Shown here: positions 7,103 to 46,297 of the stretch, in pieces | How positions within the stretch are numbered: position 1 is the stretch's first letter | Layout: the number at the start of each line of letters is the position of its first letter | Assembly: GCA_014332745.1 (NCBI GenBank) | Contig: JACONL010000002.1 | Coordinates: 82,919 to 146,918 of the forward strand | Length of the DNA stretch: 64,000 nt | DNA from: Alphaproteobacteria bacterium GM7ARS4 | GTDB taxonomy: Bacteria; Pseudomonadota; Alphaproteobacteria; GM7ARS4 | Direction: 5' to 3' | Notes under the pieces: model-generated | What the model saw: the letters and a program-made list of their open reading frames with translations, nothing else | What the model was told of the DNA's origin: nothing | The model's database searches: none | Position numbers and translations under genes: made by a program

Positions 7103-7206
7103 GGGTGATATGGTGATATAGGGTCTTGACGTAGGGGGCGTGTCGTTCTAGTGTGACCCTTTGTAGAGAGGGTGTGATGACTGACGAACGTGGGAGGTGG
7201 GAGCAT

Positions 7207-8898
7207 ATGGCGTCCAAAGGAAAATACAAGAGCGATATTGAGATTGCAAGGGCGGCGCATTTGCGTCCCATCATTGAGCTGGCCCGTGATAGGTTGGGGA
7301 TAGAGGCTGGTGACCTTCATCCCTATGGCCATGACAAGGCGAAACTTCCCCTAGAGTATATTGACAGCATGCATGGGCGTAAAGACGGCGTTCTGATTTT
7401 GGTGACAGCCATGACGCCGACGAAGGCTGGCGAAGGCAAGACGACCACCACCGTTGGTTTGGCTGATGGGCTTAATCGTCTAGGCAAGAGTTGTATTGCG
7501 GCATTGCGAGAGCCTAGTTTAGGGCCTTGCTTTGGCATGAAGGGGGGAGCAGCGGGGGGAGGATATGCGCAAGTGGTGCCGATGGTTGACATCAACCTTC
7601 ATTTCACGGGGGATTTTCATGCGATAACGTCGGCCCATATGTTGCTCTCGGCGATGGTGGATAACCATATTTACTGGCGTCATGACCCAAAGTTAGATCC
7701 TCGGCGCGTGGTATGGCGTCGTGTCGTCGATATGAATGACAGGGCGCTACGCCATGTGACAATCTCTCTGGGGGGTGTTGCCAATGGCTTTCCTCGTGAA
7801 GATGGCTTTGATATTACGGTGGCGTCAGAGGTGATGGCGATCTTATGTTTGGCGACAGACTTACAGGATTTGCGAGAGCGTTTAGGCAAGATTATTGTGG
7901 GGTATGACGAGAACAGGCAGGCTGTGACGGCGCGTGACCTCAAGGCAGACGGGGCGATGACGACGTTGTTGAAGGATGCGTTACAGCCCAATTTAGTGCA
8001 GACGTTAGAGAACAACCTTGCCTTTGTGCATGGTGGACCTTTTGCCAATATCGCCCATGGCTGTAATACGGTGTTAGCGACCAAGACGGCGCTGACCTTA
8101 GCGGATTATGTGGTGACGGAGGCGGGTTTTGGCGCGGATTTAGGGGCTGAGAAATTTTTTAATATTAAATGTCGTAAGAGTGGTCTTCGTCCGGCGGCGG
8201 CTGTTCTTGTGGCGACGGTGCGCGCTTTGAAGTTGCATGGCGGCGCTGATGAGAAGGCGCTCAGTCGCGAGGATGTGGGCGCTGTGAGTCAGGGATTGCC
8301 TAACGTTCTTCAGCATGTGGAAAATATCCAAAAGTTTGGCATTCCCGTCGTTGTGGCGATCAATCGTTTTCCCACCGACACGGAGGCTGAGATACGTGAG
8401 GTGCAACAGGCATGTCGGGAGCAAGGTGTCTCAGCGGTGTTGGCGGAGCATTGGGAGAAGGGGGGTGAAGGCGCTGTGGATTTAGCGCAGGAAGTCATTA
8501 ATGTGGCATCGAGAGGGAAGGGGGCGTTCACACCGCTCTATGACGACAAGACTCCCTTAGAAGAGAAGATAGAGATTGTTGCGCGGGAGATTTATCGTGC
8601 CGATGGTGTCGACATCGGGGCGGTGGCAAAGAAGAAGTTGCAAGACTACAAGGACATGGGCTTTGGTGATGTTCCTATCTGTATGGCGAAGACCCAGTAT
8701 AGTTTTTCCACCGACCCCAGTCGCAAAGGGGCGCCGAGAGGTTTTCGTCTTCCTGTGCGTGATGTGCGTTTATCGGCTGGCGCTGGTTTTGTCGTTGTCT
8801 TAGCGGGCGATATTATGACGATGCCGGGCTTGCCATCTCGTCCCGCCGCTGAGAGTGTGGGTGTCGATGATAAGGCTGTTGTCTATGGCTTGTTCTAG
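7207..8898 (+). CDS. fhs: Formate-tetrahydrofolate ligase
   Basis: N-terminus [17 protein letters not shown] with the [20 protein letters not shown]-loop typical of FTHFS, about 563 aa. The ATG at 7207 is preferred over the track start 7153. Confidence 0.9.
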
Positions 8899-8931: not shown

Positions 8932-9501
8932 GTGGCGGGCTCGATGATGGCGCATGACGGGATAGTGGGTGTGTCGTGGCATGGGACGACTGTTTTAGCG
9001 GTGCGGAAGGGGGGACAGGTCGTCATGGCGGGCGATGGTCAGGTCACCCATGGGCAGACAATTCTGAAGTCTAATGCCAACAAGTTGCGTGTCATGCAGA
9101 AAGGACGTATCATCGCTGGCTTTGCTGGCAATACGGCTGATGCGTTGACGCTCTTTGCGCGCCTCGAGAACAAATTGGAGGAGCATGGTCGCCTCACACG
9201 CGCATGTGCCGAATTGGCAAAGGAGTGGCGCATGGACAAGTATTTACAGCGTTTAGAGGCGATGATGCTTGTTGCTGACAAAGAGCATACATTTCTTTTA
9301 TCTGGGTCTGGAGATATGATACAACCAGAGTATGACGTCATCAGCATTGGCTCTGGCGGCAATTATGCGATGGCGGCGGGGCGCGCTCTTTATGGGCGGG
9401 ACGATATGGATGCGGAGGCGATCGTGCGAGAGGCTATGGCGATCGCCGCTGACTTATGTATTTACACGAATCACGCCATCACGGTTCTAAAGGCAACGTA
9501 A
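8932..9501 (+). CDS. hslV: ATP-dependent protease subunit HslV
   Basis: [39 protein letters not shown], with the N-terminal Thr nucleophile after a short alpha-type leader. Located directly upstream of hslU. Confidence 0.9.
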
Positions 9502-9520: not shown

Positions 9521-10849
9521 ATGGCGGCAGAACAACAGCGTTTCTTTTTACCCAGTGAGATTATCTCTCAGCTTAATCGTTTTATTGTGGGTCAAGAAGG
9601 CGCGAAGAAGGCGGTGGCTGTTGCCCTACGTAATCGTTGGCGACGTCAACGGGTGGCTGACCATGCTTTGCGTCAAGAGATTCTTCCCAAGAATCTCCTC
9701 ATGATAGGGCCGACAGGGGTTGGCAAGACAGAGATAGCGCGTCGGCTTGCCTCTCTGTCCAGCTCACCTTTCATCAAAGTCGAGGCGACGAAATTCACAG
9801 AAGTAGGCTATGTGGGGAGGGATGTGGAACAAATTGTCCGCGACCTTGTGGGGGTGGCCATCAATATGACTCGCCATGAGATGCGTGAGAAAAACAGGGA
9901 GGCGACTGAGCATGCTGTTCTCAAGATGCTGCTCAGGAAGCTAGAGAAAGAGGACAATGCTGTCTACGATGCGAGCCACATAGAGCCTTTACGTGAGGGG
10001 CGCTATGACCATAAGAACGTCACTATTGAGACGTCAGAGAGTTCATCCTCCTCCATGCCGTTGATGGATATTCCGGGTGTGCCGGGCGCGCAGATAGGCA
10101 TGATGAATGTCAACGACATGATAGGCCGCATGATGGGTGGCGGACGCAAGAAGAAACGACAGGTGAGCGTCAAGGACGCAAAGAAAATTCTCTTTGAGAT
10201 AGAGAGCGACAAGTTAATGGATGAGGAGCATGTGGCGCGTCAGTCTATCGAGAAGGTTGAGGAGCATGGCATTGTGTTTCTTGATGAGATCGACAAGATA
10301 TGTGTATCGCGTGATGGCAGGCGTGGTGGCGATGTGAGTCGTGAAGGCGTGCAGCGTGACCTTCTTCCTCTTATTGAGGGGACGATCGTGCAGACTCGTC
10401 ATGGCTCTGTGAAGACAGACCATATTTTATTTATTGCGTCTGGTGCGTTTCACTTTGCCAAGCCGTCTGATTTGATGCCCGAGTTGCAGGGGCGTTTGCC
10501 TGTGCGTGTGTCGTTGGAGTCGTTATCCCGTGAGGATTTTGTCCGTATTTTGACGGAGCCTGAGAATAATTTAGTGCGTCAATATAAGGCGTTAATGGAG
10601 ACGGAAGGGGTTATGCTTGAGGTGACGGAGGATGCCATTGAGGAGATCGCGGCGATGGCGACAAAAATCAATGCCGATGTGGAGAATATCGGGGCGAGGC
10701 GTCTACACACGTTGTTAGAGAAAGTTCTCGAGGACATCAGTTTTAGGGCTGGTGATACGGAGGGTGCGTTTTCCGTTGACAAGGCCTATGTGCGTGAGCG
10801 TTTGCGTGATGTTGTGAGTGAGCAAGACTTATCGCGCTTTATTTTGTAG
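9521..10849 (+). CDS. hslU: ATP-dependent protease ATPase subunit HslU
   Basis: 442 aa with the Walker A motif IGPTGVGKTEIARRLA and an HslU-type N-terminus (IVGQEGAKKAVAVALRNRWRR). Confidence 0.92.
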   Translation: MAAEQQRFFLPSEIISQLNRFIVGQEGAKKAVAVALRNRWRRQRVADHALRQEILPKNLLMIGPTGVGKTEIARRLASLSSSPFIKVEATKFTEVGYVGRDVEQIVRDLVGVAINMTRHEMREKNREATEHAVLKMLLRKLEKEDNAVYDASHIEPLREGRYDHKNVTIETSESSSSSMPLMDIPGVPGAQIGMMNVNDMIGRMMGGGRKKKRQVSVKDAKKILFEIESDKLMDEEHVARQSIEKVEEHGIVFLDEIDKICVSRDGRRGGDVSREGVQRDLLPLIEGTIVQTRHGSVKTDHILFIASGAFHFAKPSDLMPELQGRLPVRVSLESLSREDFVRILTEPENNLVRQYKALMETEGVMLEVTEDAIEEIAAMATKINADVENIGARRLHTLLEKVLEDISFRAGDTEGAFSVDKAYVRERLRDVVSEQDLSRFIL

Positions 10850-11845
10850 CGCCTGTTGCCATGTATCGTTGGCGGATGGTGTGTTCTGGAGTCTGATACC
10901 GCGTTTATTGCTGATCATGGTGGGGGCGCATGTGGCGATAGTGTGATTCTTGAGGGAGAGGATGAGGCTCTGTTTTTGCGGGGGAATAGGGATGGGCTGG
11001 CGCTGTGGGTTTGTCCCTGTGAGTTTTGAGAGGCAGATGGGGAATCTGTCGCTATGACATTCTAGGACGTAGGACTCTTGCTCTGTTTGGGCGGGCGGTA
11101 GGGGCGCATCGAGCCATATGTGCTGTTCTTGGTCTTTTCTTGTGCTGAGGCGTAGGGTCTTACCGAGACAGAGGACGGGCTGGTGCATGCGGGGGCTGAC
11201 ATCAAAGAAGACAATATCGCCGGCGTGCCATGTATGGATGTGCTCTATGGATTCGATGGTGATGAGTCCGTAGAGGAAGTATGCGGGGATGGAGATGGGG
11301 TGGTGGATGGTGGCGTCAGCGGACGCAAAACGTTGGAGGATAGCTATCCATGCGTCATGCTGACCTTGGGGGATTTGGACGCACACAGGAATGGTATTTC
11401 CATGGCTCAGTGTCCACAGCCCGTGGAGGGAGAGCATATCGGCGTCTGTGGGATGAGGGTCATGCTGGTTGGCGATATGGCGGGCGTCGGTGATCTCGAC
11501 GGAGAGGCCAAGCTGGTGGGCGCATGCATCGATGATATGGTGGGCTTGGTCGGCCATGAAGGCGGATTGGATGGCGGGGTCTGCTTTATCCCATAGTGAC
11601 GAGAGTCCATTATGCCATGAGGGGTCGAGGGCAATATCTGGCAAGCGCACTCTGAGAGGGCATGGGCCCAAGAGCGCGCCAATGTCCCAGCACCATGCTT
11701 CGCTCTGCTCTGTGGCGGGATGGTGAGCGGTGAGGGTGAACGTAGCTTGTTGTCCCGCGCCATAGTGGAGTTGGACGGGATGGCGTTGGAGCGCTTGTTC
11801 TATATGGCTTTTCTTATCATTGAGAGGATGGGCAAGGGACAGCAT
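10829..11845 (-). CDS. sctQ: Putative T3SS cytoplasmic-ring protein SctQ (YscQ-like), divergent and His-rich
   Basis: Lies immediately downstream of the sctP T3S4-domain ORF (3 nt gap, same frame). The mid-region IPAYFLYGLITIESIEHIHTWHAGDIVFFD...PVLCLGKT resembles the YscQ segment RIPLPILISLRWHKVYLTLDEVDSLRLGDVLLAP...SPVLAYVGEN. The C-terminal SpoA-like region is weak. The ATG at 11845 is preferred over the TTG at 11854. Confidence 0.45.
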   Translation of the reverse strand: MLSLAHPLNDKKSHIEQALQRHPVQLHYGAGQQATFTLTAHHPATEQSEAWCWDIGALLGPCPLRVRLPDIALDPSWHNGLSSLWDKADPAIQSAFMADQAHHIIDACAHQLGLSVEITDARHIANQHDPHPTDADMLSLHGLWTLSHGNTIPVCVQIPQGQHDAWIAILQRFASADATIHHPISIPAYFLYGLITIESIEHIHTWHAGDIVFFDVSPRMHQPVLCLGKTLRLSTRKDQEQHIWLDAPLPPAQTEQESYVLECHSDRFPICLSKLTGTNPQRQPIPIPPQKQSLILSLKNHTIATCAPTMISNKRGIRLQNTPSANDTWQQALQNKAR

Positions 11846-11857
11846 GGAGGACAATGT

Positions 11858-12199
11858 TTATTCGTTCTGTTCTTGTCGGTAGGCTTCGGCATAGGCGCGT
11901 TGCTGTGATTCTTCTTGTTCCGAGTCTTGACTTTGGTAGTCGAGGCGCACCGTGACCTCATGGTCTGTTTGTTCGCTGAGGAAGCTTTGGAGTCCTTCGA
12001 TATGGCCGCTCATGATGTTATGGGAGAGGGGCGATGACGTTGAGACGACGACGCTGAGTTTTCCGTGCTGTTGATGGAGTTGAATATCGGTGCGTGGGAG
12101 GATGGAGTCATGGACGGTGATATGGACTCGTGATTCGCCGGGCTGATTGTTGTGTTGGACAAGGATTTTTTGGGCAATGTCTTGGATATTGTGTGGCAT
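11858..12199 (-). CDS. sctP: T3SS needle-length regulator SctP, C-terminal T3S4 (FliK-like) domain ORF
   Basis: 113-aa ORF with a T3S4-like alternating hydrophobic pattern (RVHITVHDSILPRTDIQLHQQHGKLSVVVSTSSPLSHNIMSGHIEGLQSFLSEQTDHEVTVRL). It sits between sctV and sctQ, as in sctP-sctQ operons. Confidence 0.55.
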   Translation of the reverse strand: MPHNIQDIAQKILVQHNNQPGESRVHITVHDSILPRTDIQLHQQHGKLSVVVSTSSPLSHNIMSGHIEGLQSFLSEQTDHEVTVRLDYQSQDSEQEESQQRAYAEAYRQEQNE

Positions 12200-12732
12200 G
12201 GTGGGGGGCGATGGTGTTGTGGGCGATGTGGGAACAGCTTGTTCCGCATGGGCGGTTTGAGGCAGTGAGGTGGCGGCTACCGATGCTGATGTGATGTCCG
12301 ATGGCGTCTGTGTGGTAGGACGAGATGGTGCGTTCTCTTGATGTTGTGGCCTATGGAGGTGATGTTTTGCCGCTAGCTGAGGGGGGGATATGGTTGGGGC
12401 GAGGCGGACGCTGTGTGGGGTGATGTATGAGGCGACGTTGTGTGGGGTGATGTGTGGGCTGGCTGTGCGGTGCGTAAACCTTGTGTCTGTGTGCTGTGCT
12501 GTGCTTTGTTTTGTGTGCGTGTGTTGCTCTTCGGTTTTGTGTTTTGTGTGCGCTTTTCCTGTTGCGCCTTCTTTTTTTTGACATGGCGTGGCGTCTTCTT
12601 TTGGAGAAGGGCGTTCATTCTTGCCACATCGGAGGGGTGTGCTGTGTCACCTGTGGGCGTTGATAGGGCGGGGGTGTCACTGAGAGTCGCTGGCACTGAG
12701 GGCGTGGATGGGACGTTGAATGTTGTTGTCAT
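12010..12732 (-). pseudogene. sctP: Pro/Ser/Thr/His-rich low-complexity ORF fragments, probably the disrupted N-terminal part of sctP
   Basis: ORFs 12373-12732 and 12010-12249 share one frame and are separated by a single in-frame TAG at 12373-12375. The T3S4 ORF (11858-12199) is in another frame, with a G6/C6 tract at about 12203-12208 at the junction and a G7 tract at 12381-12387 beside the TAG. Combined length of about 350 aa fits SctP proteins with Pro-rich N-terminal repeats. Confidence 0.35.
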
Positions 12733-12867
12733 GAGGGTTATGTTTTTGGGGTGATGTTTTTTCTGTCGATGCCTGTGAGGAATGTCTTTGGGTGTCGCTT
12801 AGGTGTCCGCCATGGGGGCGGTTGTGTCATTTATTTCTCTTCTGTTATCGGTGGCGTGTGAGGGTGG

Positions 12868-15024
12868 TTAGGCGGCATTGGCTGTCTCTTCCATGTCTTG
12901 TGTTGCCATTGTTTCTTGTGGTTGTTGTTGTGTTTCTGTGTTTGTGCGAATTTTTCCCAATGGTTGGATGGTCATTTCTTGGGTGAGTTCTTGGTAGGCG
13001 AGGACGGGCAGGTCATAGATTTCCAGTTCGATGAGTTTTCGCACATAGCGGCGTATATCGGTGGCGGTGACGAGGACGGGGTTTTGTTGATGGTCGGTGA
13101 GCGTGCCGACGGTCTTTTTCACGGAGTCGACAAATTGGTGCGCGCTTTCTGAGTCGAGGGCGAGATAGCTTCCTCCTGATGTTTGTCTGATAGCGCCACG
13201 TATTTTTTCCTCGATACTCGACTCGATAAGGTAGGCGGGGAGGATATTTTGCCCTGCTGAGAATTGGTAGCTGATTTGTCGTCCTAGGCTCATGCGGACA
13301 TATTCGGTGAGGAGGACGCTATCTTTTTCCTTTTGTCCCCATTCGATGAGGGCTTCTAGGACGGTGCGCATGTTGCGTATGGAGATGGATTCTGACACTA
13401 AGCGTTTGAGGATTTCGGCAACTTTCTGTAGAGGGAGCACCCGTTGAATTTCTTTCACCAAGTCGGGGAATTGCTCTTCCATGTTGTTGAGGAGGAAATA
13501 CGTCTCTTGGATACCGATAAAGGATTCGGCATGACGTTTGAGGACAAAGCTGAGGTGATAAATAAGGATTTCTGCTGTTGTCATAGAGGATAGTCCCGCT
13601 TTTTTCATGGCATCCTTATGCTTTCTATCGACCCATAGGCTTGGGAGGTTGGGGAGGAAGGCCTTATCTTCTTCGTAGGGGATATGAAAGAGCTCGAGAT
13701 TTTCTGCCTTTTCCCGTGAGAGCAAGGCATGGGGACGTAATGTGCCTCTGGTGACGGGGACTTCTTGGAAGAGGATACTATAGTCGCCATCCTGCATGGT
13801 GCTGGCAAAGCGTAATTTGATTCCTGGAAATGGCACGCCTAGGTCATAATATAAGGCGCGTCGTGCCCGTATGAGTTGGTCGTTCATCATGTCGCTATCG
13901 ATGGACTCTTGCATCATGGCGGCGACTTCGATGAGGAGAGGCGTTGTCAGGGAGAATCCTTGCTCGTCATCGATACGTGTTTTTTGTCGTCCTTGCACAT
14001 CGGGGGCTGTGGCGTCTTGTTTTGCTTTTCCTTTTTCTTGGGCGAGAGCGTGGCGTTGGCGCATCGAGAACCATACAGGGACACCTAACAGACAGGCGAT
14101 GGTGAGAAAGATGAACGAGGGAAAGCCCGGGATGAGGGCGAAGCCCACCATGAGTCCAGCGGCAACGAGGAGCGCCCGTGGTTCTTGGGAGACTTGGATG
14201 ATAATATCAGAGCCTAAATCCCGTTTTTCCTCTGAGGAGACACGGGTGACGATCAAGCCAGACGTAATAGCAATAAAGAGGGCGGGAATCTGTCCTATCA
14301 AGCCATCCCCGATGGTGAGGATAGAGTAGATATGGGCGGCTTCTGCTGCTGTCAGGCCATTTTGGACGACGCCAATGGTGATGCCACCGACCATATTGAC
14401 GGCGACGATGATAAGGCCAGCGATGGCGTCGCCTTTGACGAATTTCATCGCCCCATCCATTGACCCAAACAGCTGACTTTCCTTTTCGATATTGCTACGT
14501 CTTGTGCGCGCTTCTTCTATATCGATGAGTCCCGCCCGCATGTCGCCGTCGATGCTGATTTGCTTGCCCGGCATGGCATCGAGGGAGAAACGGGCGCTCA
14601 CTTCGGCAACACGCTCAGCGCCTTTCGTGATGACGACAAATTGGACGATGGTGAGGATAAGGAAAATGACAATACCCACAATGAGATTGCCCCCCACGAC
14701 AAAATTGCCAAAGGTAAAGACGATGTCGCCGGCATCCGCTTGGAGCAAAATCAAACGTGTCGTGCTAATGGATAACGCCAAGCGAAACAGAGTCGTGATG
14801 AGCAACAAGGAAGGGAAAGAGGCAAATTCCAAAGGTGTCGTTAAATACACCGCCACCATGAGCAATATGACGGCAATGCCCATATTGAGGGCGATGAGCG
14901 TATCGATAAGGTAGGTAGGCAGGGGAAGGATCATCATAAAGATGACGGTGACCATCATCAGGGCGAGGACAATGTCGCTACGCCCTGAGACGATACGTAA
15001 AAATTTGTTGAGGACGGCTGTCAT
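12868..15024 (-). CDS. sctV: T3SS export-gate protein SctV (LcrD/YscV family)
   Basis: 718 aa with FlhA/SctV hallmarks (FSLDAMPGKQISIDGDMRAG; GSMDGAMKFVKGDAIAGLII; ITSGLIVTRVSSEE). The C-terminal domain is very similar to Yersinia LcrD as recalled (NILPAYL...EEKIR...RQTSGGSYLAL...DIRRYVRKLIE...LPVLAYQELTQ). Confidence 0.93.
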   Translation of the reverse strand: MTAVLNKFLRIVSGRSDIVLALMMVTVIFMMILPLPTYLIDTLIALNMGIAVILLMVAVYLTTPLEFASFPSLLLITTLFRLALSISTTRLILLQADAGDIVFTFGNFVVGGNLIVGIVIFLILTIVQFVVITKGAERVAEVSARFSLDAMPGKQISIDGDMRAGLIDIEEARTRRSNIEKESQLFGSMDGAMKFVKGDAIAGLIIVAVNMVGGITIGVVQNGLTAAEAAHIYSILTIGDGLIGQIPALFIAITSGLIVTRVSSEEKRDLGSDIIIQVSQEPRALLVAAGLMVGFALIPGFPSFIFLTIACLLGVPVWFSMRQRHALAQEKGKAKQDATAPDVQGRQKTRIDDEQGFSLTTPLLIEVAAMMQESIDSDMMNDQLIRARRALYYDLGVPFPGIKLRFASTMQDGDYSILFQEVPVTRGTLRPHALLSREKAENLELFHIPYEEDKAFLPNLPSLWVDRKHKDAMKKAGLSSMTTAEILIYHLSFVLKRHAESFIGIQETYFLLNNMEEQFPDLVKEIQRVLPLQKVAEILKRLVSESISIRNMRTVLEALIEWGQKEKDSVLLTEYVRMSLGRQISYQFSAGQNILPAYLIESSIEEKIRGAIRQTSGGSYLALDSESAHQFVDSVKKTVGTLTDHQQNPVLVTATDIRRYVRKLIELEIYDLPVLAYQELTQEMTIQPLGKIRTNTETQQQPQETMATQDMEETANAA

Positions 15025-15071
15025 GGTTTTTATGGCGGGGCTTTTATGGCGGTGTCTGTGGCGGGATGTCG

Positions 15072-15476
15072 TTAGGATGTCGTTGGGATGGTGGGCGACT
15101 CTTGTGTGCGTGCGCCAACATAGTCGAGGAGTGCTTGTCCTAAGGCGCCTTTGCCGTCTTTGTCGTGTGCTGTCATGGCGCTGAGCGCCTTACAGCGTAA
15201 GAGCATGATAGCGGGGGGAAGGCTCTTGTCGCCTATGGTCTGTTTGAATTGGTCGATGGCGGTGAGAGTCCCTTCATAGTCGCCTGCGCGAAATCGGTGA
15301 TAGATTAATTGGCGTAAGATGTGGAGAGAGGGTTCTGTCATGCGGGCGAGGGACTCGACAATGATGAGGGCATCGCTCTCTCTTTGATGTTTCACGAGGA
15401 GCGAGGCAAGCATCAAGAGGAAGTCGCGCTCTTCCGTATCGGTGGTGATGCGTGTTTGTTGCTGTGGTGTTGTCAA
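15072..15476 (-). CDS. sctY: YscY-like TPR chaperone (SctY)
   Basis: 134 aa immediately upstream of sctV. Its pattern parallels YscY (ERDFLLMLASLLVKHQRESDALIIVESLARMTEPSLHILRQLIYHRF vs YscY RQQEFLLLNGWLQLQCGHAERACILLDALLTLNPEHLAGRRCRLVALL). Confidence 0.6.
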   Translation of the reverse strand: MTTPQQQTRITTDTEERDFLLMLASLLVKHQRESDALIIVESLARMTEPSLHILRQLIYHRFRAGDYEGTLTAIDQFKQTIGDKSLPPAIMLLRCKALSAMTAHDKDGKGALGQALLDYVGARTQESPTIPTTS

Positions 15477-15524
15477 TGGTCGCGTCCTCCTATCACTCTC
15501 ATAGTGTCTTAAAAAGGGGTGGGG

Positions 15525-15914
15525 CTAGCCATGGATATGCGCTTGGCGTCTATCGACGAGTTCGAGATAGTCGTCTTTGAGTGCCGTGAGAAACTCGGCG
15601 CTACGTTCGAAGAGTGCTGTATAGTCTGGTTGTAGGCGTCCTGCCTCGTGCATTTTCTCGATAAGGCTTTGTAAGATGTCGCGATAGCGGGCGGGGAGGA
15701 GAATAGAGGAGTCTTCCATGACGGGTGAAAAATAGGCAGCGATGTCTTCATGGAGGGCGGGCGGGAACAGGACATCTTCCACCATAGGGCGGGTGCTTAC
15801 GTGATTGGGGGCGAGCGTTCCTCGACGGGGCAGGGACGATGGCTGTGTCTGTTGGCGGACGACTTCTTCCAGACCTTTATCGAAGCGTAAGAGGGGATTG
15901 AGTTTGACGGACAT
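15525..15914 (-). CDS. sctX: YscX-like secretion substrate/chaperone partner (SctX), tentative
   Basis: 129 aa in the yscX position, upstream of the YscY-like gene and downstream of the SycN-like chaperone. Sequence similarity is weak. Confidence 0.4.
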   Translation of the reverse strand: MSVKLNPLLRFDKGLEEVVRQQTQPSSLPRRGTLAPNHVSTRPMVEDVLFPPALHEDIAAYFSPVMEDSSILLPARYRDILQSLIEKMHEAGRLQPDYTALFERSAEFLTALKDDYLELVDRRQAHIHG

Positions 15915-15940
15915 GATGATAGCGATGGGATGGGAGGTGG

Positions 15941-16312
15941 CTAGCCTTTAAAGGCTTGGGTCAGTTGCAAGAGCCTATCGATGGCTTGTTCGAAGAGGGA
16001 TATGACGAATCGCTCTTCTTCTATACGGACAAGGGCGATATGGGTATGGTCTCTGATAAGGGCGATACTCATCTGGAAAGGCGCGCGGCGTTGAGGATGG
16101 CATTGGGCAAGGATATGGAGATACGTTTTCATGGCGATGTCGCGCGCCTCGATGCTCATAGAGAGCACAATATGTCCCGACTCGACGCGCTCGATGAACA
16201 GCTGCTTGTCTTCTTCTAACTGAAGAGAGAGCACGCCATCCTTTTCCATATCGAAAGGAGGCAATTGCGCCATACGGGCAAACTGATTGAGTGTATCATT
16301 CAAACCATTCAT
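15941..16312 (-). CDS. Class I T3SS chaperone (SycN/YscB-like) for the gatekeeper
   Basis: Small acidic CesT/SycN-type alpha/beta chaperone (VLSLQLEEDKQLFIERVESGHIVLS...FEQAIDRLLQLTQAF) directly after sctW. Start taken at MNGLND; the track ORF extends to 16381. Confidence 0.6.
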   Translation of the reverse strand: MNGLNDTLNQFARMAQLPPFDMEKDGVLSLQLEEDKQLFIERVESGHIVLSMSIEARDIAMKTYLHILAQCHPQRRAPFQMSIALIRDHTHIALVRIEEERFVISLFEQAIDRLLQLTQAFKG

Positions 16313-17432
16313 CTTCTTCTCTGGCGATAGCTTCGTCCTGTGCCTGTTTGACAATGTCGAGGAGGCGCGTGCGTTGTTCATGGTCGTGGTAGATTTTGTC
16401 TGGCATCTGTTCCAAGACTGAGCGGAATGTGCGTAGGAGATTGATTTCCTCTGTGGCTGTTTGTGCCTTCATGTCTTGGGCGATGGAGCGGATGGATGAT
16501 GCGTCAGGCCAATCCTCTGAGGTGAAATGGAGGAGGCGATTCATCATGAAGGATGGGTCGATGGTCGCAAAGCGTTTCGACAGAGCCGCCATATGTTCGA
16601 GGGACTCCTTGCATGCCTCATGGAGTGTGACGAGGGTTTCTAAATGATAGAGGTCATCGATGATGGTTTTGAGGGCTTCGCCTTCGAGGGATGGTCCGTG
16701 GGCGTTGAGGTCGTCGCCTGCCGCTTTGATGAGGAATTGGGCATGTGTGTGAAGGTCTTGCGTGCCAAACTTCTCCACAAGGGTTTCATAGACATGCTTG
16801 AGGCCTTTATAGGCGAGGACGCTCTCCCGATAGTTGTTGCGTAAGGCGCTGAATCTGTCGGCGTCGCCTTGGGCGACATCGAGGGCTCTTTGGGTGATAT
16901 TCACCCCGGCGCGCACTTCTGGTCCGTGCCGTTCGAGCAACTGGCCTTTGATATGGCGGATGCTGTTGCGCAACGACTCGTCTCCCCCTTGTTTTTTGAG
17001 TTCTTCTTCGAGGGCGTCTAAGGCGAGATAGCGGTCGCTCACATCGCCAAATTGTCGTTCGACCATGGCGGCGAGTGTCGCCATGGTTTTTCCTTTGAGG
17101 CTATTATGCTGGGCGAGGAGGTTTTGCACCTCTTTTTTCAGGTGGGGGTCTTTGATGGTCTTGAGGACTTCATTAGCGCCGTCTTTTTGCGTGACCTGTT
17201 GGTGCGCTGTCCCTTTTTGCTCTGTCTTTTTATGTTTGCGTTCGTGGGCGCGTTCACCGACAAAAATGCTTATTTCTTCGATGGCATCGGTCAAGAGAGA
17301 TTGGACTTGTGGCACAATTTGTATGCGTTGTCCTCTGTACACGCCTTGTGTTTGTGCGGACTGGGCTGGTGCTTGTGTCCCCACATTGGCGTTACGGACG
17401 GCTGCGTCATGCTGAATGCGTTCTACCATCAC
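16296..17432 (-). CDS. sctW: T3SS gatekeeper SctW (YopN/TyeA-like fusion)
   Basis: 378 aa, matching YopN (about 290) plus TyeA (about 90). Contains the gatekeeper LALDALEEEL region and is followed by a class I chaperone, sctX and sctY, as in the Yersinia yopN-tyeA-sycN-yscX-yscY-yscV operon. Confidence 0.7.
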   Translation of the reverse strand: MMVERIQHDAAVRNANVGTQAPAQSAQTQGVYRGQRIQIVPQVQSLLTDAIEEISIFVGERAHERKHKKTEQKGTAHQQVTQKDGANEVLKTIKDPHLKKEVQNLLAQHNSLKGKTMATLAAMVERQFGDVSDRYLALDALEEELKKQGGDESLRNSIRHIKGQLLERHGPEVRAGVNITQRALDVAQGDADRFSALRNNYRESVLAYKGLKHVYETLVEKFGTQDLHTHAQFLIKAAGDDLNAHGPSLEGEALKTIIDDLYHLETLVTLHEACKESLEHMAALSKRFATIDPSFMMNRLLHFTSEDWPDASSIRSIAQDMKAQTATEEINLLRTFRSVLEQMPDKIYHDHEQRTRLLDIVKQAQDEAIAREEDEWFE

Positions 17433-17441
17433 TTTCTCGCC

Positions 17442-18455
17442 TTAGATACGTAGGGCATTCACCCAAGCGATCATTTGGCGATGGGCATGCGATTCCATCT
17501 GTGAAGAGATCTCCATATATTGGGTCATGTCATGGGTGAGTTTTGTCAATTGTCGTGTGGACTCTTGCATTTGGTTTTGACTATTTTCTAGGCGCGCCGT
17601 GACGTCTTCTTCGAACTGATCCCATAGTTTTTTATCGGCATTGCTCGCTGGGACGTTAAAGCCGTTGTCTTCGAACCATTGTCTTGTGTCATCGGGGATG
17701 TTGGTCGTTTTTGTTTCCACCTTGAGGTCGGCTTCTTTGATTCCCCAGACATATTTTGCTAAGTCATAGGCGTTGACGGTGACATAGTCTTCGCCCAATT
17801 CATGGAGGGGGAATGTCGCATCTTTATTGAGGCCGACTGAGGCTTCAATATCAAAGCCAACCGCTTTAGCGCGGGCGAGGAGGTCTTTGTTGATGATGAC
17901 AGCATCGGTAGGGTCGATATTAAACAATTTGCGTCCGAATTGGTCTTTTGGATATTTATGTCTGTTGGGGTCATAATCCCACCACCCCAGAGCCCACCAG
18001 TTATGTTCATTGGTCGAGAGTTGTTTCAGGTTTTTTTCATTGTATCCGTCGCTTCTCAAGTGTGAGATGATGTGATGTCCCGATGGCGATGCCTTGAGTT
18101 CTTCGATGATTTGGGCGGCTGTTGTCTTTTTCGCGCCGACACGTGCGGCATGGAGTTCGTCCAATTTACCGGCAAGGGTTTCTGATTGGACTTCGAGATT
18201 GCCTTGTTCTTGGGCGACGCTACTAATGTATTGCTGTATCTGTTGGGCGCGCGTCATCATGAGGAAGACAATCATGTGTTGTGGGTCCATCTCGTTGAGG
18301 ATACGGTCGGCTTCGGCTTGCTCGCGCACTTTTTTGAGTCTTGTGTTTTCTGTTTGCGCCCATTTCTGTGACGCTTTGACTTGTTGCAAGGTCGTATCGA
18401 CGAAGGATGTATCGATATGGTGGACGTTGATTTTAAAGGACGGGATGAGGGGCAT
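17442..18455 (-). CDS. Hypothetical coiled-coil protein heading the sctW-sctV operon; candidate T3SS secreted substrate (tip, translocator or effector-like)
   Basis: 337 aa with predicted N- and C-terminal coiled-coil helices flanking a globular core (NEHNWWALGWWDYDPNRHKYPKDQFG...). No TM segment or signal peptide. Its architecture is LcrV-like, but no motif-level match was recognised. Confidence 0.45.
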   Translation of the reverse strand: MPLIPSFKINVHHIDTSFVDTTLQQVKASQKWAQTENTRLKKVREQAEADRILNEMDPQHMIVFLMMTRAQQIQQYISSVAQEQGNLEVQSETLAGKLDELHAARVGAKKTTAAQIIEELKASPSGHHIISHLRSDGYNEKNLKQLSTNEHNWWALGWWDYDPNRHKYPKDQFGRKLFNIDPTDAVIINKDLLARAKAVGFDIEASVGLNKDATFPLHELGEDYVTVNAYDLAKYVWGIKEADLKVETKTTNIPDDTRQWFEDNGFNVPASNADKKLWDQFEEDVTARLENSQNQMQESTRQLTKLTHDMTQYMEISSQMESHAHRQMIAWVNALRI

Positions 18456-18636
18456 GGGACATGTTTCCTGTATGGTGATAGCGAGTCAGTGTGTCTCTTG
18501 TATGTGGCGGGATAGGGTGTTGTGTCACAAATAAAGAGACGTTTTATGGTGTTCTGTCACAGAAAGGGACGACATCGTGTCAAAGACCTCTGATGGGCGA
18601 TGTCTGTTGATTTTTTGATGACAAAGGGAGGACGGC
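18456..18636. promoter_or_regulatory. Divergent intergenic region presumed to drive both T3SS operons
   Basis: The only sizeable noncoding gap in the T3SS locus; all other gene junctions overlap or are under 30 nt. Contains three spaced copies of a GTGTCA(C/A)A-like motif (tgtgtcacaaa, ttctgtcacaga, tcgtgtcaaaga). Confidence 0.4.
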
Positions 18637-18966
18637 ATGACGAAAGAGACAAGAGACCAGACGGGGGGCTCTATCACCCACCTTCACGCGGCGTTGCTTA
18701 AGGCACAGAACAGCCTTTCCTCGCATGCTCAGAGGATTGCGCAATGGGACAAGGAGTCTGGTGATGTGCCTCGCCTCATGGAAGAACAATCATTTCCTCC
18801 CCCTTTGTTGGAATTTATCGAAGAGAAGATACGTGAATTCATCAAGGAGCGGCAAGGCGACCTTGACATCGCCATCGATAAGGGGCGTGAGAAGGCTGGT
18901 CTGCCCTTACGGCGTCATGGCGTGCGTTCAGCGCGGAGGACGCATCGAGGCATCATCAACGTCTAA
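18637..18966 (+). CDS. Hypothetical small protein, first gene of the plus-strand T3SS operon
   Basis: 109 aa, charged and helical (LLEFIEEKIREFIKERQGDLDIAIDKGREKAG). No family recognised. Confidence 0.4.
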   Translation: MTKETRDQTGGSITHLHAALLKAQNSLSSHAQRIAQWDKESGDVPRLMEEQSFPPPLLEFIEEKIREFIKERQGDLDIAIDKGREKAGLPLRRHGVRSARRTHRGIINV

Positions 18967-18983
18967 TCATAGGAGGAAGAGCA

Positions 18984-19298
18984 TTGATGGCACATTCATC
19001 CCATACCATGTCAAACAAAGAGATTGTCCAAGCCCATAGGCAGGCTCGTAAGGGATTAAAACACTCTCTCTCGACGTTATTTGCTTCTCTTCCTTTCGCG
19101 CCTGAGAAGGTCGCCCTCTTGGTGAAGAGTGGTGCGTTGGACGACCATCATATGATGGCATCGGCACAACGCCGTTTTCGCCAGATGGACCAAGTGCTTG
19201 CGCGCGGCGGCAAGCTCAGCGATATGGAGACGCAAGACAGCGCCCCGCGCGCCGCGCGCCCTCAACATGGGGCGCGCAGGCACAAAATCAACGTATGA
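18984..19298 (+). CDS. Small helical protein in the LcrG/PcrG position (putative SctG)
   Basis: 104 aa immediately upstream of the tip-like ORF and lcrH. The call rests on position and size only. Confidence 0.3.
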   Translation: MMAHSSHTMSNKEIVQAHRQARKGLKHSLSTLFASLPFAPEKVALLVKSGALDDHHMMASAQRRFRQMDQVLARGGKLSDMETQDSAPRAARPQHGARRHKINV

Positions 19299-19412
19299 AG
19301 ACATGCGTTGGGGAACAACATGGCGAGAAGTGACACGAATGAGAGAGCATCTCTATGACATGGTTGCCCATCACCTATCTTTTGTTTCGCTGTTCAGGAG
19401 GAAGAAAGACCC

Positions 19413-28089: not shown

Positions 28090-28629
28090 ATGTATCTATT
28101 GGACTCCTACTTTAGGTTTAACAAGCTCGATGTTCATATTTATGATGCCAGCAAACATAGGAAGGATGTGAACATATTCAAAATTGTGAAGAAGAATTAC
28201 GGCGATGAAAAGCAATTTGACATTGATATTGTCGTCAAAAACGTGAGGAAGGAGGATAAAAAATACTTCCTCATATCATGTAAGGGGAGTGCCAGGGAAG
28301 GGATAGGGCAATATCTGTCGAATCTTTTCTTAATGGATGACCGATTGATAAAGGCAAAATACAGGGATAGCTATTATTTGGAATTCGCACGGAAGGGGGT
28401 GAAAATCAAATATGCCTTTGTTTGTTATGATTGGGGCAAAACGAAAGACTTCCTAAAATACACGAAAACAGGGAAGGAAAGGGAGACGTTGAAAAGCACA
28501 GAGATTCTCCTTATCAATGACGAGAATTACATCAGTGGTGGGATTGCTGTGCTTAACAATCATGAAAACCTTGATGGTGTTGTCAATTTTGGCACATTGG
28601 CGGCGAGAATCGCCCAGTTTCTCAACTGA
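28090..28629 (+). CDS. Hypothetical Lys-rich protein in an AT-rich single-gene islet; no family assignable
   Basis: 180-aa ORF whose DNA is about 38-40% GC against about 56% on both sides. The high-GC 5' part of track ORF 27886-28629 is unlikely to be coding, so the start is taken at MYLLDSY. Contains FDIDIVVKN...KYFLISCKGSAREG, loosely reminiscent of PD-(D/E)xK/NERD/Mrr-like nuclease cores (speculative). Confidence 0.45.
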   Translation: MYLLDSYFRFNKLDVHIYDASKHRKDVNIFKIVKKNYGDEKQFDIDIVVKNVRKEDKKYFLISCKGSAREGIGQYLSNLFLMDDRLIKAKYRDSYYLEFARKGVKIKYAFVCYDWGKTKDFLKYTKTGKERETLKSTEILLINDENYISGGIAVLNNHENLDGVVNFGTLAARIAQFLN

Positions 28630-28951
28630 CAGCTTTGAGGGCGGATTGTGTGTTGTCTTCATAGTGGAAGAGGGCGTCTAAGCCAGCCACGCGAAAGACG
28701 TCACGCACCTCAGCATTGATGGCACAAAGGATGAATTGTTTGGGGGTTGTCCCTTTCTGTTGTGCCATGAGGAGGACGCGCAAGCCCGCACTCGTGATGA
28801 ATGGCATCGCATGGCCATCTAAGATGACGGCATCGGCATCCTCGAAGAGCGGAAGCAACTGCTCTTGTAAGTCTTGGGCGTTATGGGAGTCGACGCTGTC
28901 TTGTGGCGCAACGACTACAGTGCGGCCATGGGGTGTGATGGTGATGTCCAT
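28622..28951 (-). CDS. STAS-domain anti-sigma-factor antagonist (SpoIIAA/RsbV/BtrV-like)
   Basis: 109 aa with the STAS pattern (LDGHAMPFITSAGLRVLLMAQQKG...ILCAINAEVRDVFRVAGLDALF). Lies immediately downstream of and co-oriented with the ECF sigma gene. Confidence 0.7.
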   Translation of the reverse strand: MDITITPHGRTVVVAPQDSVDSHNAQDLQEQLLPLFEDADAVILDGHAMPFITSAGLRVLLMAQQKGTTPKQFILCAINAEVRDVFRVAGLDALFHYEDNTQSALKAVS

Positions 28952-28981
28952 AAAATGATATGTGATGATACGTTCTATGGG

Positions 28982-29839
28982 TTATGACCGAGCGATGATG
29001 GAGCTTGTGCGGGCATGGAGGGGGGCGGTATGTCCCGCCTCATGACCTTGTGGTGTGGGGGCGCGGTATGGGCGCACCGAACGTTGGAATGTGCGCGCTG
29101 CCTCAGTGGCGTGCGTCGAGACGTCATGCTGTTTGGGGGAACGAAGGCGCTTATAGAGCGCGCTCTCTTTGCGTCTCATGAGAGAGACGCCACTCTCTAA
29201 CGATTTGCTGTTCATTTTGCGTTTGAGCTGGGAACGGGCTCTCGACAGGCGCGAACGCACCGTGCCAACGGAAATCCCCAACTGCGTGCTAATATCCTCG
29301 TAGGAATGTTCTTCCACGACCATCTTGAGGACGGAACGCAATTTATGGGGAAGGCTATCGATGGAGAGATCGACTTGGCTGATATGTTCCTTATTCTCGG
29401 TGTCTTGCTCGGGCGTATTCTCTTTTGACGGCGTGTTGATAAGAATATCCGTATCGACGAATTGGTAGCGAAAACTGGGAGAGCGGTGAACATAGTTGCG
29501 TATGATGTTGCGGGCAATGCCGAAGAGCCATGTAGAGGGCGCGGAGTCGCCACGAAATTTATGGTAGGCGCGCGTCGCCTCCACACACGTGCTCTGAAAT
29601 AAATCCTCTGTAAAGTCAGGATATTTGATATTGCGGGCAATAAAATGGTGCAATTTATCCTTATTCTTGGCGATGAGCTTCTCTAACTCAACGATGTTTT
29701 TGATGGGCGCATGGAGGGGGGGTGTTTGGGGCGATGTGCCGTTGTGAGGAGAGGCATAATGGGCGGTGGTGTGAGACGTGGTATGAGACGTGGTGTGAGA
29801 CGTGGTGACGGGCGGGCTATGGGGTATCTCTTGCGACAT
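28982..29839 (-). CDS. ECF-type RNA polymerase sigma factor with N-terminal (TSHT)n repeat and ~90-aa basic C-terminal extension
   Basis: Sigma-2 region (LFQSTCVEATRAYHKFRGDSAPSTWLFGIARNIIRNYVHR) and sigma-4 HTH (EEHSYEDISTQLGISVGTVRSRLSRARSQLKRKM), followed by a basic low-complexity tail. Confidence 0.8.
   Translation of the reverse strand: MSQEIPHSPPVTTSHTTSHTTSHTTAHYASPHNGTSPQTPPLHAPIKNIVELEKLIAKNKDKLHHFIARNIKYPDFTEDLFQSTCVEATRAYHKFRGDSAPSTWLFGIARNIIRNYVHRSPSFRYQFVDTDILINTPSKENTPEQDTENKEHISQVDLSIDSLPHKLRSVLKMVVEEHSYEDISTQLGISVGTVRSRLSRARSQLKRKMNSKSLESGVSLMRRKESALYKRLRSPKQHDVSTHATEAARTFQRSVRPYRAPTPQGHEAGHTAPLHARTSSIIARS
29768..29803. repeat. 3 x 12-nt tandem repeat (ggtgtgagacgt) inside the 5' end of the ECF sigma gene
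   Basis: Units ggtgtgagacgt / ggtatgagacgt / ggtgtgagacgt plus a partial fourth. They encode TSHT-TSHT-TSHT on the minus strand and keep the frame. Confidence 0.7.
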
Positions 29840-30031
29840 GGTCTTTTTCTCCTCGTTGGGACTCGGTTATTCAACGTTCATCCACAGATTTATCCACAGA
29901 TGGATATATGATATGTTCCCTATGGCACGAGAAGGCAAAGCAATATAGGTTGAGAGAGGGTTAATATCCTGTTATGGTATGGCGCATGGCGTAAAAACGG
30001 GTGTTTTTTGCTCCATAATGGACGAAATCGT

Positions 30032-30352
30032 CTATGGTGTCTCTTTGTCGTCGTTGAGACGTTGGAGCAAGGCGTGGCTCATGCGGAAGCGGACGGAGCG
30101 TTTTGGCGCTACGGGGACGGTTTCTCCGGTTTTAGGGTTGCGTCCGATACGCGCTTTTTGCTGTTTGGTGTAGAGGGTGCCAAATCCACGAATTTCCATG
30201 TGCCTTCCTTGTTCTAGGGCGTCTGCGATATGGTCGAAAATATGGTCTAGGTATATGCTTGTTTTTTTGCGGGTAAATCTTTTCCCGTCTTTCTTTTTAT
30301 GGCGCCGATAGAGTTCCTCGATGATGTCGGATTTTTTTATCGATGTCGTCAT
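30032..30352 (-). CDS. Integration host factor subunit (IHF/HU family)
   Basis: 106 aa with the IHF signature (EIRGFGTLYTKQQKARIGRNPKTGETVPVAPKRSVRFRMSHAL). Confidence 0.8.
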   Translation of the reverse strand: MTTSIKKSDIIEELYRRHKKKDGKRFTRKKTSIYLDHIFDHIADALEQGRHMEIRGFGTLYTKQQKARIGRNPKTGETVPVAPKRSVRFRMSHALLQRLNDDKETP

Positions 30353-45837: not shown

Positions 45838-46110
45838 TTAGTTGAGGGCTTCTTTGAGGCTTTTGCCGGCTTTAAACTTGGCGGCTTGGGACGCGGGGAT
45901 ATCGATCTCCTGTCCCGTGCTGGGATTGCGCCCCTTGCGCGCCTTCCTCTTACTGACAGAGAAGGTCCCAAAACCAACAAGGCGGACATCATCACCCGAT
46001 GTCAGGGCCTTCGTGATACAGTCAAAGACGGCATCGACGGCTTTCCCCGCATCAGCCTTACTCAAGCCGCTGGCGTTGGACACGTTGTCGACAAAATCGC
46101 TTTTATTCAT
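45838..46110 (-). CDS. hupB: DNA-binding protein HU
   Basis: 90 aa (MNKSDFVDNVSNASGLSKADAGKAVDAVFDCI...RKARKGRNPSTGQEIDIPA) with a GGAGG RBS upstream of the ATG at 46110. The track ORF is extended to 46221. Confidence 0.9.
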   Translation of the reverse strand: MNKSDFVDNVSNASGLSKADAGKAVDAVFDCITKALTSGDDVRLVGFGTFSVSKRKARKGRNPSTGQEIDIPASQAAKFKAGKSLKEALN

Positions 46111-46297
46111 GCTGTTTTTCCTCCTGATAGATGACGGATGATATGAGAGGGTTATGACAATTTTAGTGTGATAGGCAGAGATGATGAAACATCCCATGCA
46201 TATGAACGTCTGACATGACACCTCCTTTGTGAGCCCATCATAGCATGGTCTGTCATGGAATGCATAGAAAAAATGCGTGGATATGTTCCTTCTCTCT

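Follow-up and report, generated by a model that had tools for sequence, protein, structure and literature searches.

How does an uncultured sponge symbiont control its type III secretion system (T3SS)? The question is raised by two adjacent genes in the metagenome-assembled genome (MAG) "Alphaproteobacteria bacterium GM7ARS4" (Candidatus Methylospongiales). They encode a sigma factor of the extracytoplasmic function (ECF) family and a single-domain STAS protein of the anti-sigma-factor antagonist family, and they lie close to the genes of a Ysc/Bsc-type T3SS. We analysed the surrounding stretch of 64,000 nucleotides (nt) (contig JACONL010000002.1, positions 82,919 to 146,918), referred to below as the window. 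Ca. Methylospongiales was founded on two genomes, those of GM7ARS4 and its sister GM202ARS2, and both are methylotrophic, T3SS-bearing symbionts of the sponge host Lamellodysidea herbacea with genome sizes of 1.6-1.8 Mb (GM7ARS4: 1.6 Mb, 52% GC); that study mentions the T3SS without discussion of its regulators (PMC7313196). Gene-level information on anti-sigma factors, RsbW, or SpoIIE was not found in its supplements. An interpretation made from the nucleotide sequence of the window (the sequence-only reading) had proposed an operon that resembles btrS and btrV of Bordetella, and this proposal is partly supported by our results. With moderate confidence, we propose that the two genes belong to a master module of the T3SS, in which the sigma factor reads promoters of the type AAGMGA-N16-18-YCACA and is itself under transcriptional control, and in which the STAS protein, in the style of BtrV, modulates the system positively and is switched by phosphorylation, while the genes for its kinase and phosphatase lie in another part of the genome.

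Both genes were found on the minus strand, where the sequence-only reading had placed them. The sigma factor gene (28982..29839, minus strand) encodes 285 amino acids (aa), and a GAGGAG ribosome-binding site precedes its ATG. Pfam matched Sigma70_r2 at aa 55-118 (8e-11) and Sigma70_r4_2 at aa 156-205 (3e-14) and no other sigma region, i.e. region 3 and sigma1.1 are absent, and the NCBIfam model TIGR02937 (sigma70-ECF) gave 93.9 bits at a cut-off of 42.9. The protein is an ECF (group 4) sigma factor of the sigma-70 family with sigma2 and sigma4 only. Every equivalog model, including those of RpoE, SigW, and SigE, was far under its cut-off. The annotation as BtrS/HrpL type draws on identities and profile scores (see below) in addition to Pfam, NCBIfam, and an AlphaFold2 model.

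The STAS gene (28622..28951, minus strand, 109 aa) is separated from the sigma factor gene by 30 nt. A simple scan of their own strand found neither a terminator-like nor a sigma-70-like promoter site between the two genes. The product is 100% identical to the GM7ARS4 protein P0121, matches PF01740 (6e-13) and TIGR00377 (60.9 bits, cut-off 53.45), and aligns end to end with the SpoIIAA structures 1th8 and 1auz. Ser54, within FITSAGLRVLL, occupies the position of the SpoIIAA phospho-serine, and also aligns with the serine of ISSAGL in the STAS proteins of btr loci (BtrV Ser55). The motif [ST]-S-A-G-L-R-V is kept in all five STAS proteins of the clade described below, and matches YISSAGLRVVL of the btr-locus proteins. 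Orthology of the STAS protein to BtrV was considered and rejected on profile scores; the SAGLRV motif is the only common feature. At its 3′ end, the STAS gene has a convergent overlap of 8 nt with an open reading frame (ORF) of 247 aa (27886-28629, plus strand), which has a weak match to the BsaWI endonuclease (E = 0.009) and may be an orphan or a decaying remnant of a restriction-modification (R-M) system.

The T3SS block, which is the presumed regulon, was delimited by Pfam matches (10829..27002) and contains sctV, yscX, a sycN-type gene, sctW/tyeA, sctJ, K, L, N, and O, and genes that encode a YopB-like translocator and a TPR chaperone. No candidates for sctC, D, Q, R, S, T, and U were recognised within the window. 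The T3SS gene nearest to the operon is sctO, which ends at 27002, 1.6 kb from the STAS gene, so that the proximity to a Ysc/Bsc-like T3SS claimed by the sequence-only reading holds. SctV of the window has an E-value of 3e-272 to SctV of the Ottowia btr locus versus ~1e-155 to 1e-167 to those of hrp clusters. Pfam scans found no AraC-type or other regulator in the block.

The comparison was extended to five genomes, i.e. the window (also represented by a JGI contig, L087, with identical gene order and the same products of 285 aa and 109 aa), GM202ARS2 (L088), and the metagenome contigs L001, L004, and L005. The sigma factors of this clade are 46-66% identical to that of the window. In all five genomes, the sigma and STAS genes are preceded by a third gene and are located beside the T3SS. 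In the window, this gene (30032..30352, minus strand) encodes a divergent DNA-bending protein of the IHF/HU family of 106 aa (PF00216, 5.5e-24), and its best NCBIfam matches, IHF-alpha and IHF-beta, are both under the cut-off. Its orthologues lie directly 5′ of the sigma factor gene and in the same orientation (L088 8720-9037, L001 9504-9821, L004 5428-5715, and L005 1477-1761). This IHF-like paralogue evolves fast and is separate from the housekeeping HU gene at 45838-46221. The spacing of the sigma and STAS genes varies from an overlap (L004, L005) to 1 nt (L088) and 94 nt (L001). Compared with the four relatives, the window has its entire T3SS block in the opposite orientation, so that its STAS gene is turned towards sctO and theirs towards the sctV end. 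In GM202ARS2, R-M genes for an SfiI-like endonuclease and an N6/N4 methyltransferase lie between the STAS gene and the T3SS (L088 10327-12963), where the window has the endonuclease-like ORF described above. The linkage of the module to the T3SS persists despite the block inversion and the R-M insertions, and the three-gene module is always located beside a Ysc/Bsc-type T3SS in this lineage. In L001 (ERZ25068803 ctg11252l), CobN is split into three ORFs (5491-8687) and the C-terminus of the STAS protein is out of frame (10743-11093); these frame breaks are probably assembly indels, or else gene decay.

To place the sigma factor, btr and hrp outgroups were drawn from contig scans with at least 600 matches, and closeness refers to the matches listed. 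Among these, the best relatives outside the clade are betaproteobacterial sigma factors (36-44% identity), and the nearest are the BtrS-type sigma factors of the btr loci of Achromobacter, Ottowia, and Bordetella (36-43% identity). The next tier is formed by HrpL proteins of the hrp clusters of Pseudomonas, Pantoea, Lonsdalea, and Cedecea (28-38% identity), which are encoded beside hrcV, hrcN, and hrpJ. The identities to other ECF sigma factors are 14-33%. The nearest outgroup sigma factors among the matches listed are all T3SS-linked or paralogues of T3SS-linked ones. Group profiles gave the same order, with scores of 172-185 bits for BtrS-like, 154 bits for HrpL, and 141 bits for other ECF sigma factors. 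In a neighbour-joining (NJ) tree with 200 bootstraps, the Methylospongiales-type clade was recovered in 198 replicates, HrpL in 180, and all T3SS-linked ECF sigma factors together in 53. The tree was also tried as a means to decide between an affinity to BtrS or to HrpL, which failed, as no node deeper than the clade or HrpL was supported. By its identities and profile scores, the protein appears to be a T3SS sigma factor of the BtrS/HrpL type that is closest to BtrS.

The btr loci themselves provide a reference for the gene order. In Bordetella, the published order is BtrV-BtrW-alr-BtrO-BtrU-BtrN-BtrM-BtrA-BtrS, followed by bsc (PMC7498569). In three Achromobacter loci (L012, L014, and L019), a STAS gene, a HATPase_c_2 kinase gene, about five genes, a BtrA-like gene (196-aa protein), the sigma factor gene, and bscN follow each other, which is exactly the order of Bordetella, and one of the kinases is labelled BtrW in UniRef. 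Ottowia thiooxydans (L006) has a compact version, i.e. STAS-kinase-BtrA-like-sigma within the T3SS cluster. In T3SS loci of Castellaniella (L017/L020), Yanghanlia (L009), and Thalassospira (L027), a STAS gene accompanies the gene for a BtrS-like sigma factor, and no kinase match was found in the stretch compared. A different arrangement was observed on six metagenome contigs (L140, L142, L146, L147, L159, and L160), where ORFs with only the sigma2 half are followed by a convergent STAS gene; these may represent another sigma-STAS association in unrelated organisms.

Outside the two conserved domains, the sigma factor carries extensions at both ends. An AlphaFold2 model, built with 78 sequences, has a core at aa 49-210 with a predicted local distance difference test (pLDDT) score >90. 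The last helix of sigma4 extends to about aa 223 and is followed by a short low-confidence helix (aa 227-233); aa 1-48 and 234-285 have no predicted structure, with pLDDT values of 48-66 after aa 234. The C-terminal tail that the sequence-only reading had described is indeed basic (pI 11.45, 14 K+R versus 5 D+E), and it comprises about 75 aa (aa 211-285) rather than 90. The first ~25 aa of the tail are its only conserved part (..SLExG..LYxRLR..); they are common to GM202ARS2, P0001, P0002, and P0003, and are missing in P0004 and P0005, and the total length of the sigma factor varies from 211 to 311 aa among the clade members. The N-terminal 48 aa are of low complexity and contain TSHT three times, encoded by three copies of the 12-nt tandem repeat ACGTCTCACACC (29755-29800, minus strand, codons ~13-25). 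The TSHT repeat was found in this genome only and in none of the relatives, and is a recent low-complexity expansion.

The tail had also been likened to the built-in regulatory extensions of ECF41/ECF42-type sigma factors, and this idea was abandoned. ECF41, ECF42, and ECF238 carry SnoaL, TPR, or Cys-rich sensor domains (PMC8999054). The only likeness is the presence of extra residues after sigma4. Pfam found no domain beyond aa 214, and neither Pfam nor AlphaFold2 revealed a folded SnoaL-like or TPR domain on sigma4. In contrast to the ECF41/ECF42 type, the tail of the window sigma factor is short (75 aa), basic, domainless, and predicted to be disordered from about aa 234, and its length and sequence change between sister MAGs, with only ~25 aa near sigma4 kept in some members. 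An ECF41/42-like regulatory tail is thereby ruled out; the disordered basic C-terminus and the low-complexity N-terminus would be lineage-specific decorations and not sensor domains.

Which promoters might this sigma factor read? The region 18456-18636, in which the sequence-only reading had suggested a search for an ECF-type -35/-10 element, contains a bipartite motif. This candidate promoter P1 (AAAGAGA-N17-TCACAGA, 18533..18563, plus strand) lies 74 nt 5′ of the first gene of the translocator-side operon (18637), within the 181-nt divergent region between this operon and the operon of a 337-aa gene and sctW. Its orthologues are TAAGCGA-N17-CCACACA in L088, TAAGAGA-N17-TCACACA in L001, and TAAGAGA-N17-CCACACA in L005. 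The window, L088, L001, and L005 each have exactly one copy of the strict pattern WAAGMGA-N16-18-YCACASA, which lies at the orthologous position and has a spacer of 17 nt in every case. The relaxed pattern AAG[AC]GA-N16-18-[CT]CACA has four matches in the 64-kb window versus an expectation of 0.52 +/- 0.72 (first-order Markov simulations, 300 runs, maximum 3), an enrichment that is partly circular because the pattern was derived from P1 and its orthologues. Three of the four matches are located in intergenic regions of the T3SS block and are oriented with the next gene. Besides P1, these are P3 (TAAGCGA-N16-TCACAGG, 12774..12801, minus strand), in the intergenic region downstream of sctV and 42 nt 5′ of a 119-aa gene (12373-12732), and P4 (CAAGAGA-N18-CCACACA, 12311..12340, minus strand), 5′ of a YscP-like 113-aa gene (11858-12199). 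Within the divergent region, a weak leftward candidate, P2 (AAGAGA-N15/16-(T)CACC, 18474..18499, minus strand), faces the 337-aa gene and the sctW operon; it is tentative, as it fits only a loose pattern with off-consensus spacing. The genes downstream of sctV are small and lie on the minus strand (10829-11854, 11858-12199, and 12373-12732); the 341-aa gene at 10829-11854 has no domain match, and the 113-aa gene at 11858-12199 has a weak match to the YscP (needle-length) domain.

The candidate -10 element YCACASA resembles the -10 element of the hrp box, CCACNNA, while the -35 element differs from GGAACC. The exact hrp box (GGAACC-N15-17-CCACNNA) is absent from the window and its relatives, and the same kind of scan, as a positive control, found hrp boxes in most of the HrpL loci scanned. 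On a contig of a MAG assigned to Bordetella sp. (L010), a hrp-box-like site (GGAACT-N16-CCACGTA, 7591-7619, plus strand) lies about 80 nt 5′ of a BtrA-like gene, a hint that a -10 element with CCAC may be read by BtrS-type sigma factors as well. For comparison, the BtrS-dependent genes of Bordetella form two clusters, bscN-bsp22 and bopN-orf2 (PMC7498569), which correspond to the analogous gatekeeper/translocator part of the locus. The candidate motif was not found upstream of the sigma factor gene in any locus. This agrees with sigma factors of the ECF32 type, which are not autoregulated and have no cognate anti-sigma factor gene adjacent to them (PMC7826278).

A different element was found upstream of the sigma factor gene. 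Two DnaA-box-like 9-mers in tandem, TCATCCACA gat TTATCCACA (29878..29898, plus strand), are situated 40-60 nt 5′ of the start of the gene, and TTATCCACA is the only exact DnaA-box consensus in the 64-kb window. The tandem is conserved as TGTGGATAAgccTGTGGGTAA 5′ of the sigma factor gene in L088 (~9143-9166) and L001 (~9925-9950). It is not an origin of replication, as there is no switch of the GC skew at this position. It is a candidate operator for the expression of the sigma factor, and DnaA or another factor may act there as a transcriptional regulator.

The partners that a partner-switching system would require were searched for with several approaches. Pfam scans of the plausible genes of at least 150 aa and of several smaller ORFs did not find HATPase_c_2, SpoIIE, or PP2C in the window, and a BtrW-family profile, run against its six-frame ORFs of at least 50 aa, gave nothing better than E = 1.3, so that the absence of an RsbW-type kinase and a PP2C phosphatase from the window is confirmed. 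A kinase profile over the six-frame ORFs of the window, L088, L001, L004, and L005 gave nothing better than E = 0.86, and the best E-value of a profile built on the BtrA-like proteins of 14 btr loci was 0.63 over the same five loci; both values are noise. HATPase_c_2 kinases and SpoIIE/PP2C are also absent from the precomputed Pfam lists of the related loci, and no ZAS-type, RseA-type, or BtrA-like anti-sigma factor gene was found at the sigma locus. The local absence of a kinase gene is weak evidence for its absence from the genome, because several BtrS-like loci have a STAS gene without a local kinase match.

We favour the interpretation that these genes constitute a dedicated transcription module of the symbiont's injectisome. 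The sigma factor would direct RNA polymerase to AAGMGA-N16-18-YCACA promoters in front of the translocator-side operon and the small genes downstream of sctV, an arrangement that would parallel Bordetella, where BtrS drives two operons that diverge from the bopN/bsp22 region. Like the ECF32/HrpL type, it would not be autoregulated, and its control would probably take place when its gene is transcribed, with the conserved tandem of DnaA-box-like sites as operator and perhaps with help from the IHF-like protein. The STAS protein would be made in a fixed proportion with the sigma factor, and it would act as a positive modulator of T3SS output that is phospho-switchable through Ser54, like BtrV; the genes for the serine kinase and the phosphatase that act on it would lie at other places of the 1.6-Mb genome. 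All of this is inference, except for the identity of the genes and their synteny.

Several points weigh against this interpretation. The NJ node that unites the clade with BtrS was found in only 13 of 200 bootstraps, i.e. BtrS monophyly is unsupported. The promoter motif was not found in L004, and its enrichment in the window has the circularity mentioned above. Against the profile of btr-locus STAS proteins (BtrV), SpoIIAA of B. subtilis scores higher (72.5 bits) than the STAS protein of the window (52.5 bits). The target of BtrV in Bordetella is unknown (reviews), and to state that a protein "works like BtrV" is thin mechanistically. In none of the five loci did a search of the surrounding 10 kb reveal a kinase or a phosphatase, and GM7ARS4 and GM202ARS2 are absent among the 120 of 2769 kinase-profile matches listed (from a set of 5.8 billion proteins), which is uninformative. 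The analogy to BtrS and BtrV put forward by the sequence-only reading is supported for the sigma factor, whose nearest relatives outside the clade, by identity and profile scores, are those of btr loci, and is not supported for the STAS protein, which is outscored by SpoIIAA; BtrA, BtrW, and BtrU are absent from the locus.

One alternative, which we consider rather unlikely, is that the STAS protein itself is the direct cognate regulator of the sigma factor, either as an anti-sigma factor or as a stabiliser, that it acts independently of a kinase, and that it binds, maybe, via the SLExG..LYxRLR segment. The gene that lies just 3′ of an ECF sigma factor gene and is coupled to it usually encodes its anti-sigma factor (neighbourhood rule, PMC7826278), and a STAS gene occupies this position in all five genomes. 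The absence of kinase, PP2C, BtrA-like, and other anti-sigma candidates from all five loci would fit, as would the reduced 1.6-Mb genome, which favours minimal circuits, and a review of STAS-only proteins lists non-canonical cases with partners that are not known and might include sigma factors. However, the phospho-serine and its loop are strictly conserved, as expected if a kinase still acts, and the LYxRLR segment is absent from the sigma factors of the L004/L005 type (P0004, P0005), which still have a STAS protein. To our knowledge, there is no precedent for a STAS protein that binds an ECF sigma factor directly. The more specific claim that a single-domain STAS protein in the ECF anti-sigma slot directly regulates a T3SS master sigma factor without any RsbW-type kinase or PP2C, as a minimal circuit of two proteins, or of three with the IHF-like protein, is quite improbable in our view; if true, such a kinase-free circuit would bring to light the type of target that has long been sought for BtrV-like proteins.

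To a second alternative we assign a similarly low probability as to direct regulation by the STAS protein. It holds that not the sigma factor but the machinery of secretion, or the translation or stability of T3SS proteins, is what the STAS protein influences, and that its place in the operon merely ensures co-expression. It takes its strength from Bordetella itself. The sequence-only reading had started from the premise that partner-switching proteins control the ECF sigma factor there, which goes beyond what is known, as the literature has them act after transcription or on secretion, by a mechanism that is unknown, and does not describe them as controlling BtrS. In B. bronchiseptica, BtrV is needed post-transcriptionally (for translation or the stability of proteins), whereas secretion is under the control of BtrU and BtrW; negative regulation is exerted by none of the three (reviews). 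In addition, the STAS genes of Castellaniella, Yanghanlia, and Thalassospira accompany BtrS-like sigma factors without a kinase match. Yet the STAS protein of the window is no closer to BtrV than SpoIIAA is, so that orthology gives no shared function, and no target is known in any system.

It is highly improbable that the sigma factor is a general stress (RpoE-like) ECF sigma factor that lies beside the T3SS by chance, with a STAS protein from an unrelated general-stress circuit: RpoE-type models are among the top NCBIfam matches and the best PDB matches are AlgU and RpoE-type, but such equivalog matches are all far under their cut-offs (e.g. TIGR02939 with 84.7 versus 236 bits), RseA/RseB-type genes were not found, the nearest relatives are T3SS-linked sigma factors, the T3SS linkage persists through rearrangement in five genomes, and copies of the candidate promoter motif cluster in the T3SS block.

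The remaining genes of the window have housekeeping functions (TyrRS, FTHFS, HslVU, CobW/N/O/Q, RecA, NusA, IF-2, Lon, ClpX, HrcA-GrpE-DnaK-DnaJ, DapB, and AtpF/F'). Rfam matched a tRNA-Val as the sole RNA in the window; a riboswitch or small RNA near the sigma-STAS operon was not found. An ORF of 1062 aa (2634-5822, plus strand) between glnE and tyrS has no Pfam match and could encode a symbiosis or effector protein. The GC skew is positive in every 2-kb bin of the window (1-64000; 0.08-0.33), i.e. strong and uniform, at a background of 52% GC.

All component families of the module are already known, and Bordetella has already provided an example of a BtrS-like sigma factor that is associated with a STAS protein and a T3SS. 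New are the compact IHF-like/sigma/STAS unit, whose locus lacks BtrA, BtrW, and BtrU, the lineage, i.e. sponge-symbiotic Alphaproteobacteria, and the candidate promoter with its hrp-like -10 and distinct -35 element. On the interpretation as a dedicated transcription module, BtrS/HrpL-type injectisome control would reach beyond the Beta- and Gammaproteobacteria, into an order of uncultured Alphaproteobacteria that live in sponges and have reduced genomes. The module would be a natural minimal btr circuit, with the sigma factor and the STAS protein coupled in translation. The target of BtrV-type STAS proteins has been open since 2004-2005, and a STAS gene welded to a sigma factor gene is a clean place to ask whether the sigma factor is that target. 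The value of the locus would rise sharply if complete genomes lacked the kinase and the STAS protein bound the sigma factor. The candidate motif AAGMGA-N16-18-YCACA may also help to predict which genes of Ca. Methylospongiales genomes, those for effectors among them, belong to the T3SS regulon.

Three known systems were used for comparison. With the modules SpoIIAA/SpoIIAB/SpoIIE and RsbV/RsbW/RsbU, the locus shares a STAS protein that meets TIGR00377 and aligns with SpoIIAA over its full length, including the phospho-serine. In contrast to these modules, the linked sigma factor belongs to group 4 (ECF) and not to group 3, and no gene for a kinase/anti-sigma factor or a PP2C is found in the operon or its neighbourhood.

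The second system is HrpL (ECF32) of Pseudomonas syringae, Erwinia, and Pantoea, which is likewise a T3SS ECF sigma factor encoded in or by the T3SS cluster. In both cases, the sigma factor's own promoter motif is not present before its gene, no cognate anti-sigma factor gene lies downstream, and the candidate -10 element YCACASA matches CCACNNA of the hrp box. IHF assists the transcription of hrpL, and an IHF-like gene is linked to the sigma factor gene of the window. The differences are the lower identity (28-38%), the -35 element (AAGMGA versus GGAACC), and the type of T3SS, which is Ysc/Bsc-type and not Hrp1. Furthermore, the hrp loci examined have no STAS gene, and a sigma-54 promoter or a HrpRS-type activator was not seen.

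[quoted passage not shown] The common features are an ECF sigma factor beside a Ysc/Bsc-type injectisome, a single-domain STAS protein with the phospho-serine and SAGLRV in the locus, and a candidate promoter in the divergent gatekeeper/translocator region. In contrast to btr, neither the window nor the four related loci have homologues of BtrA, BtrW, and BtrU, and profile scores reveal no specific likeness of the STAS protein to BtrV. The STAS gene is part of the sigma factor operon here and about 9 kb away in btr, the module includes an IHF-like gene, the sigma factor has disordered N- and C-terminal extensions, and the genome of 1.6 Mb is that of an alphaproteobacterium living in symbiosis with a sponge.

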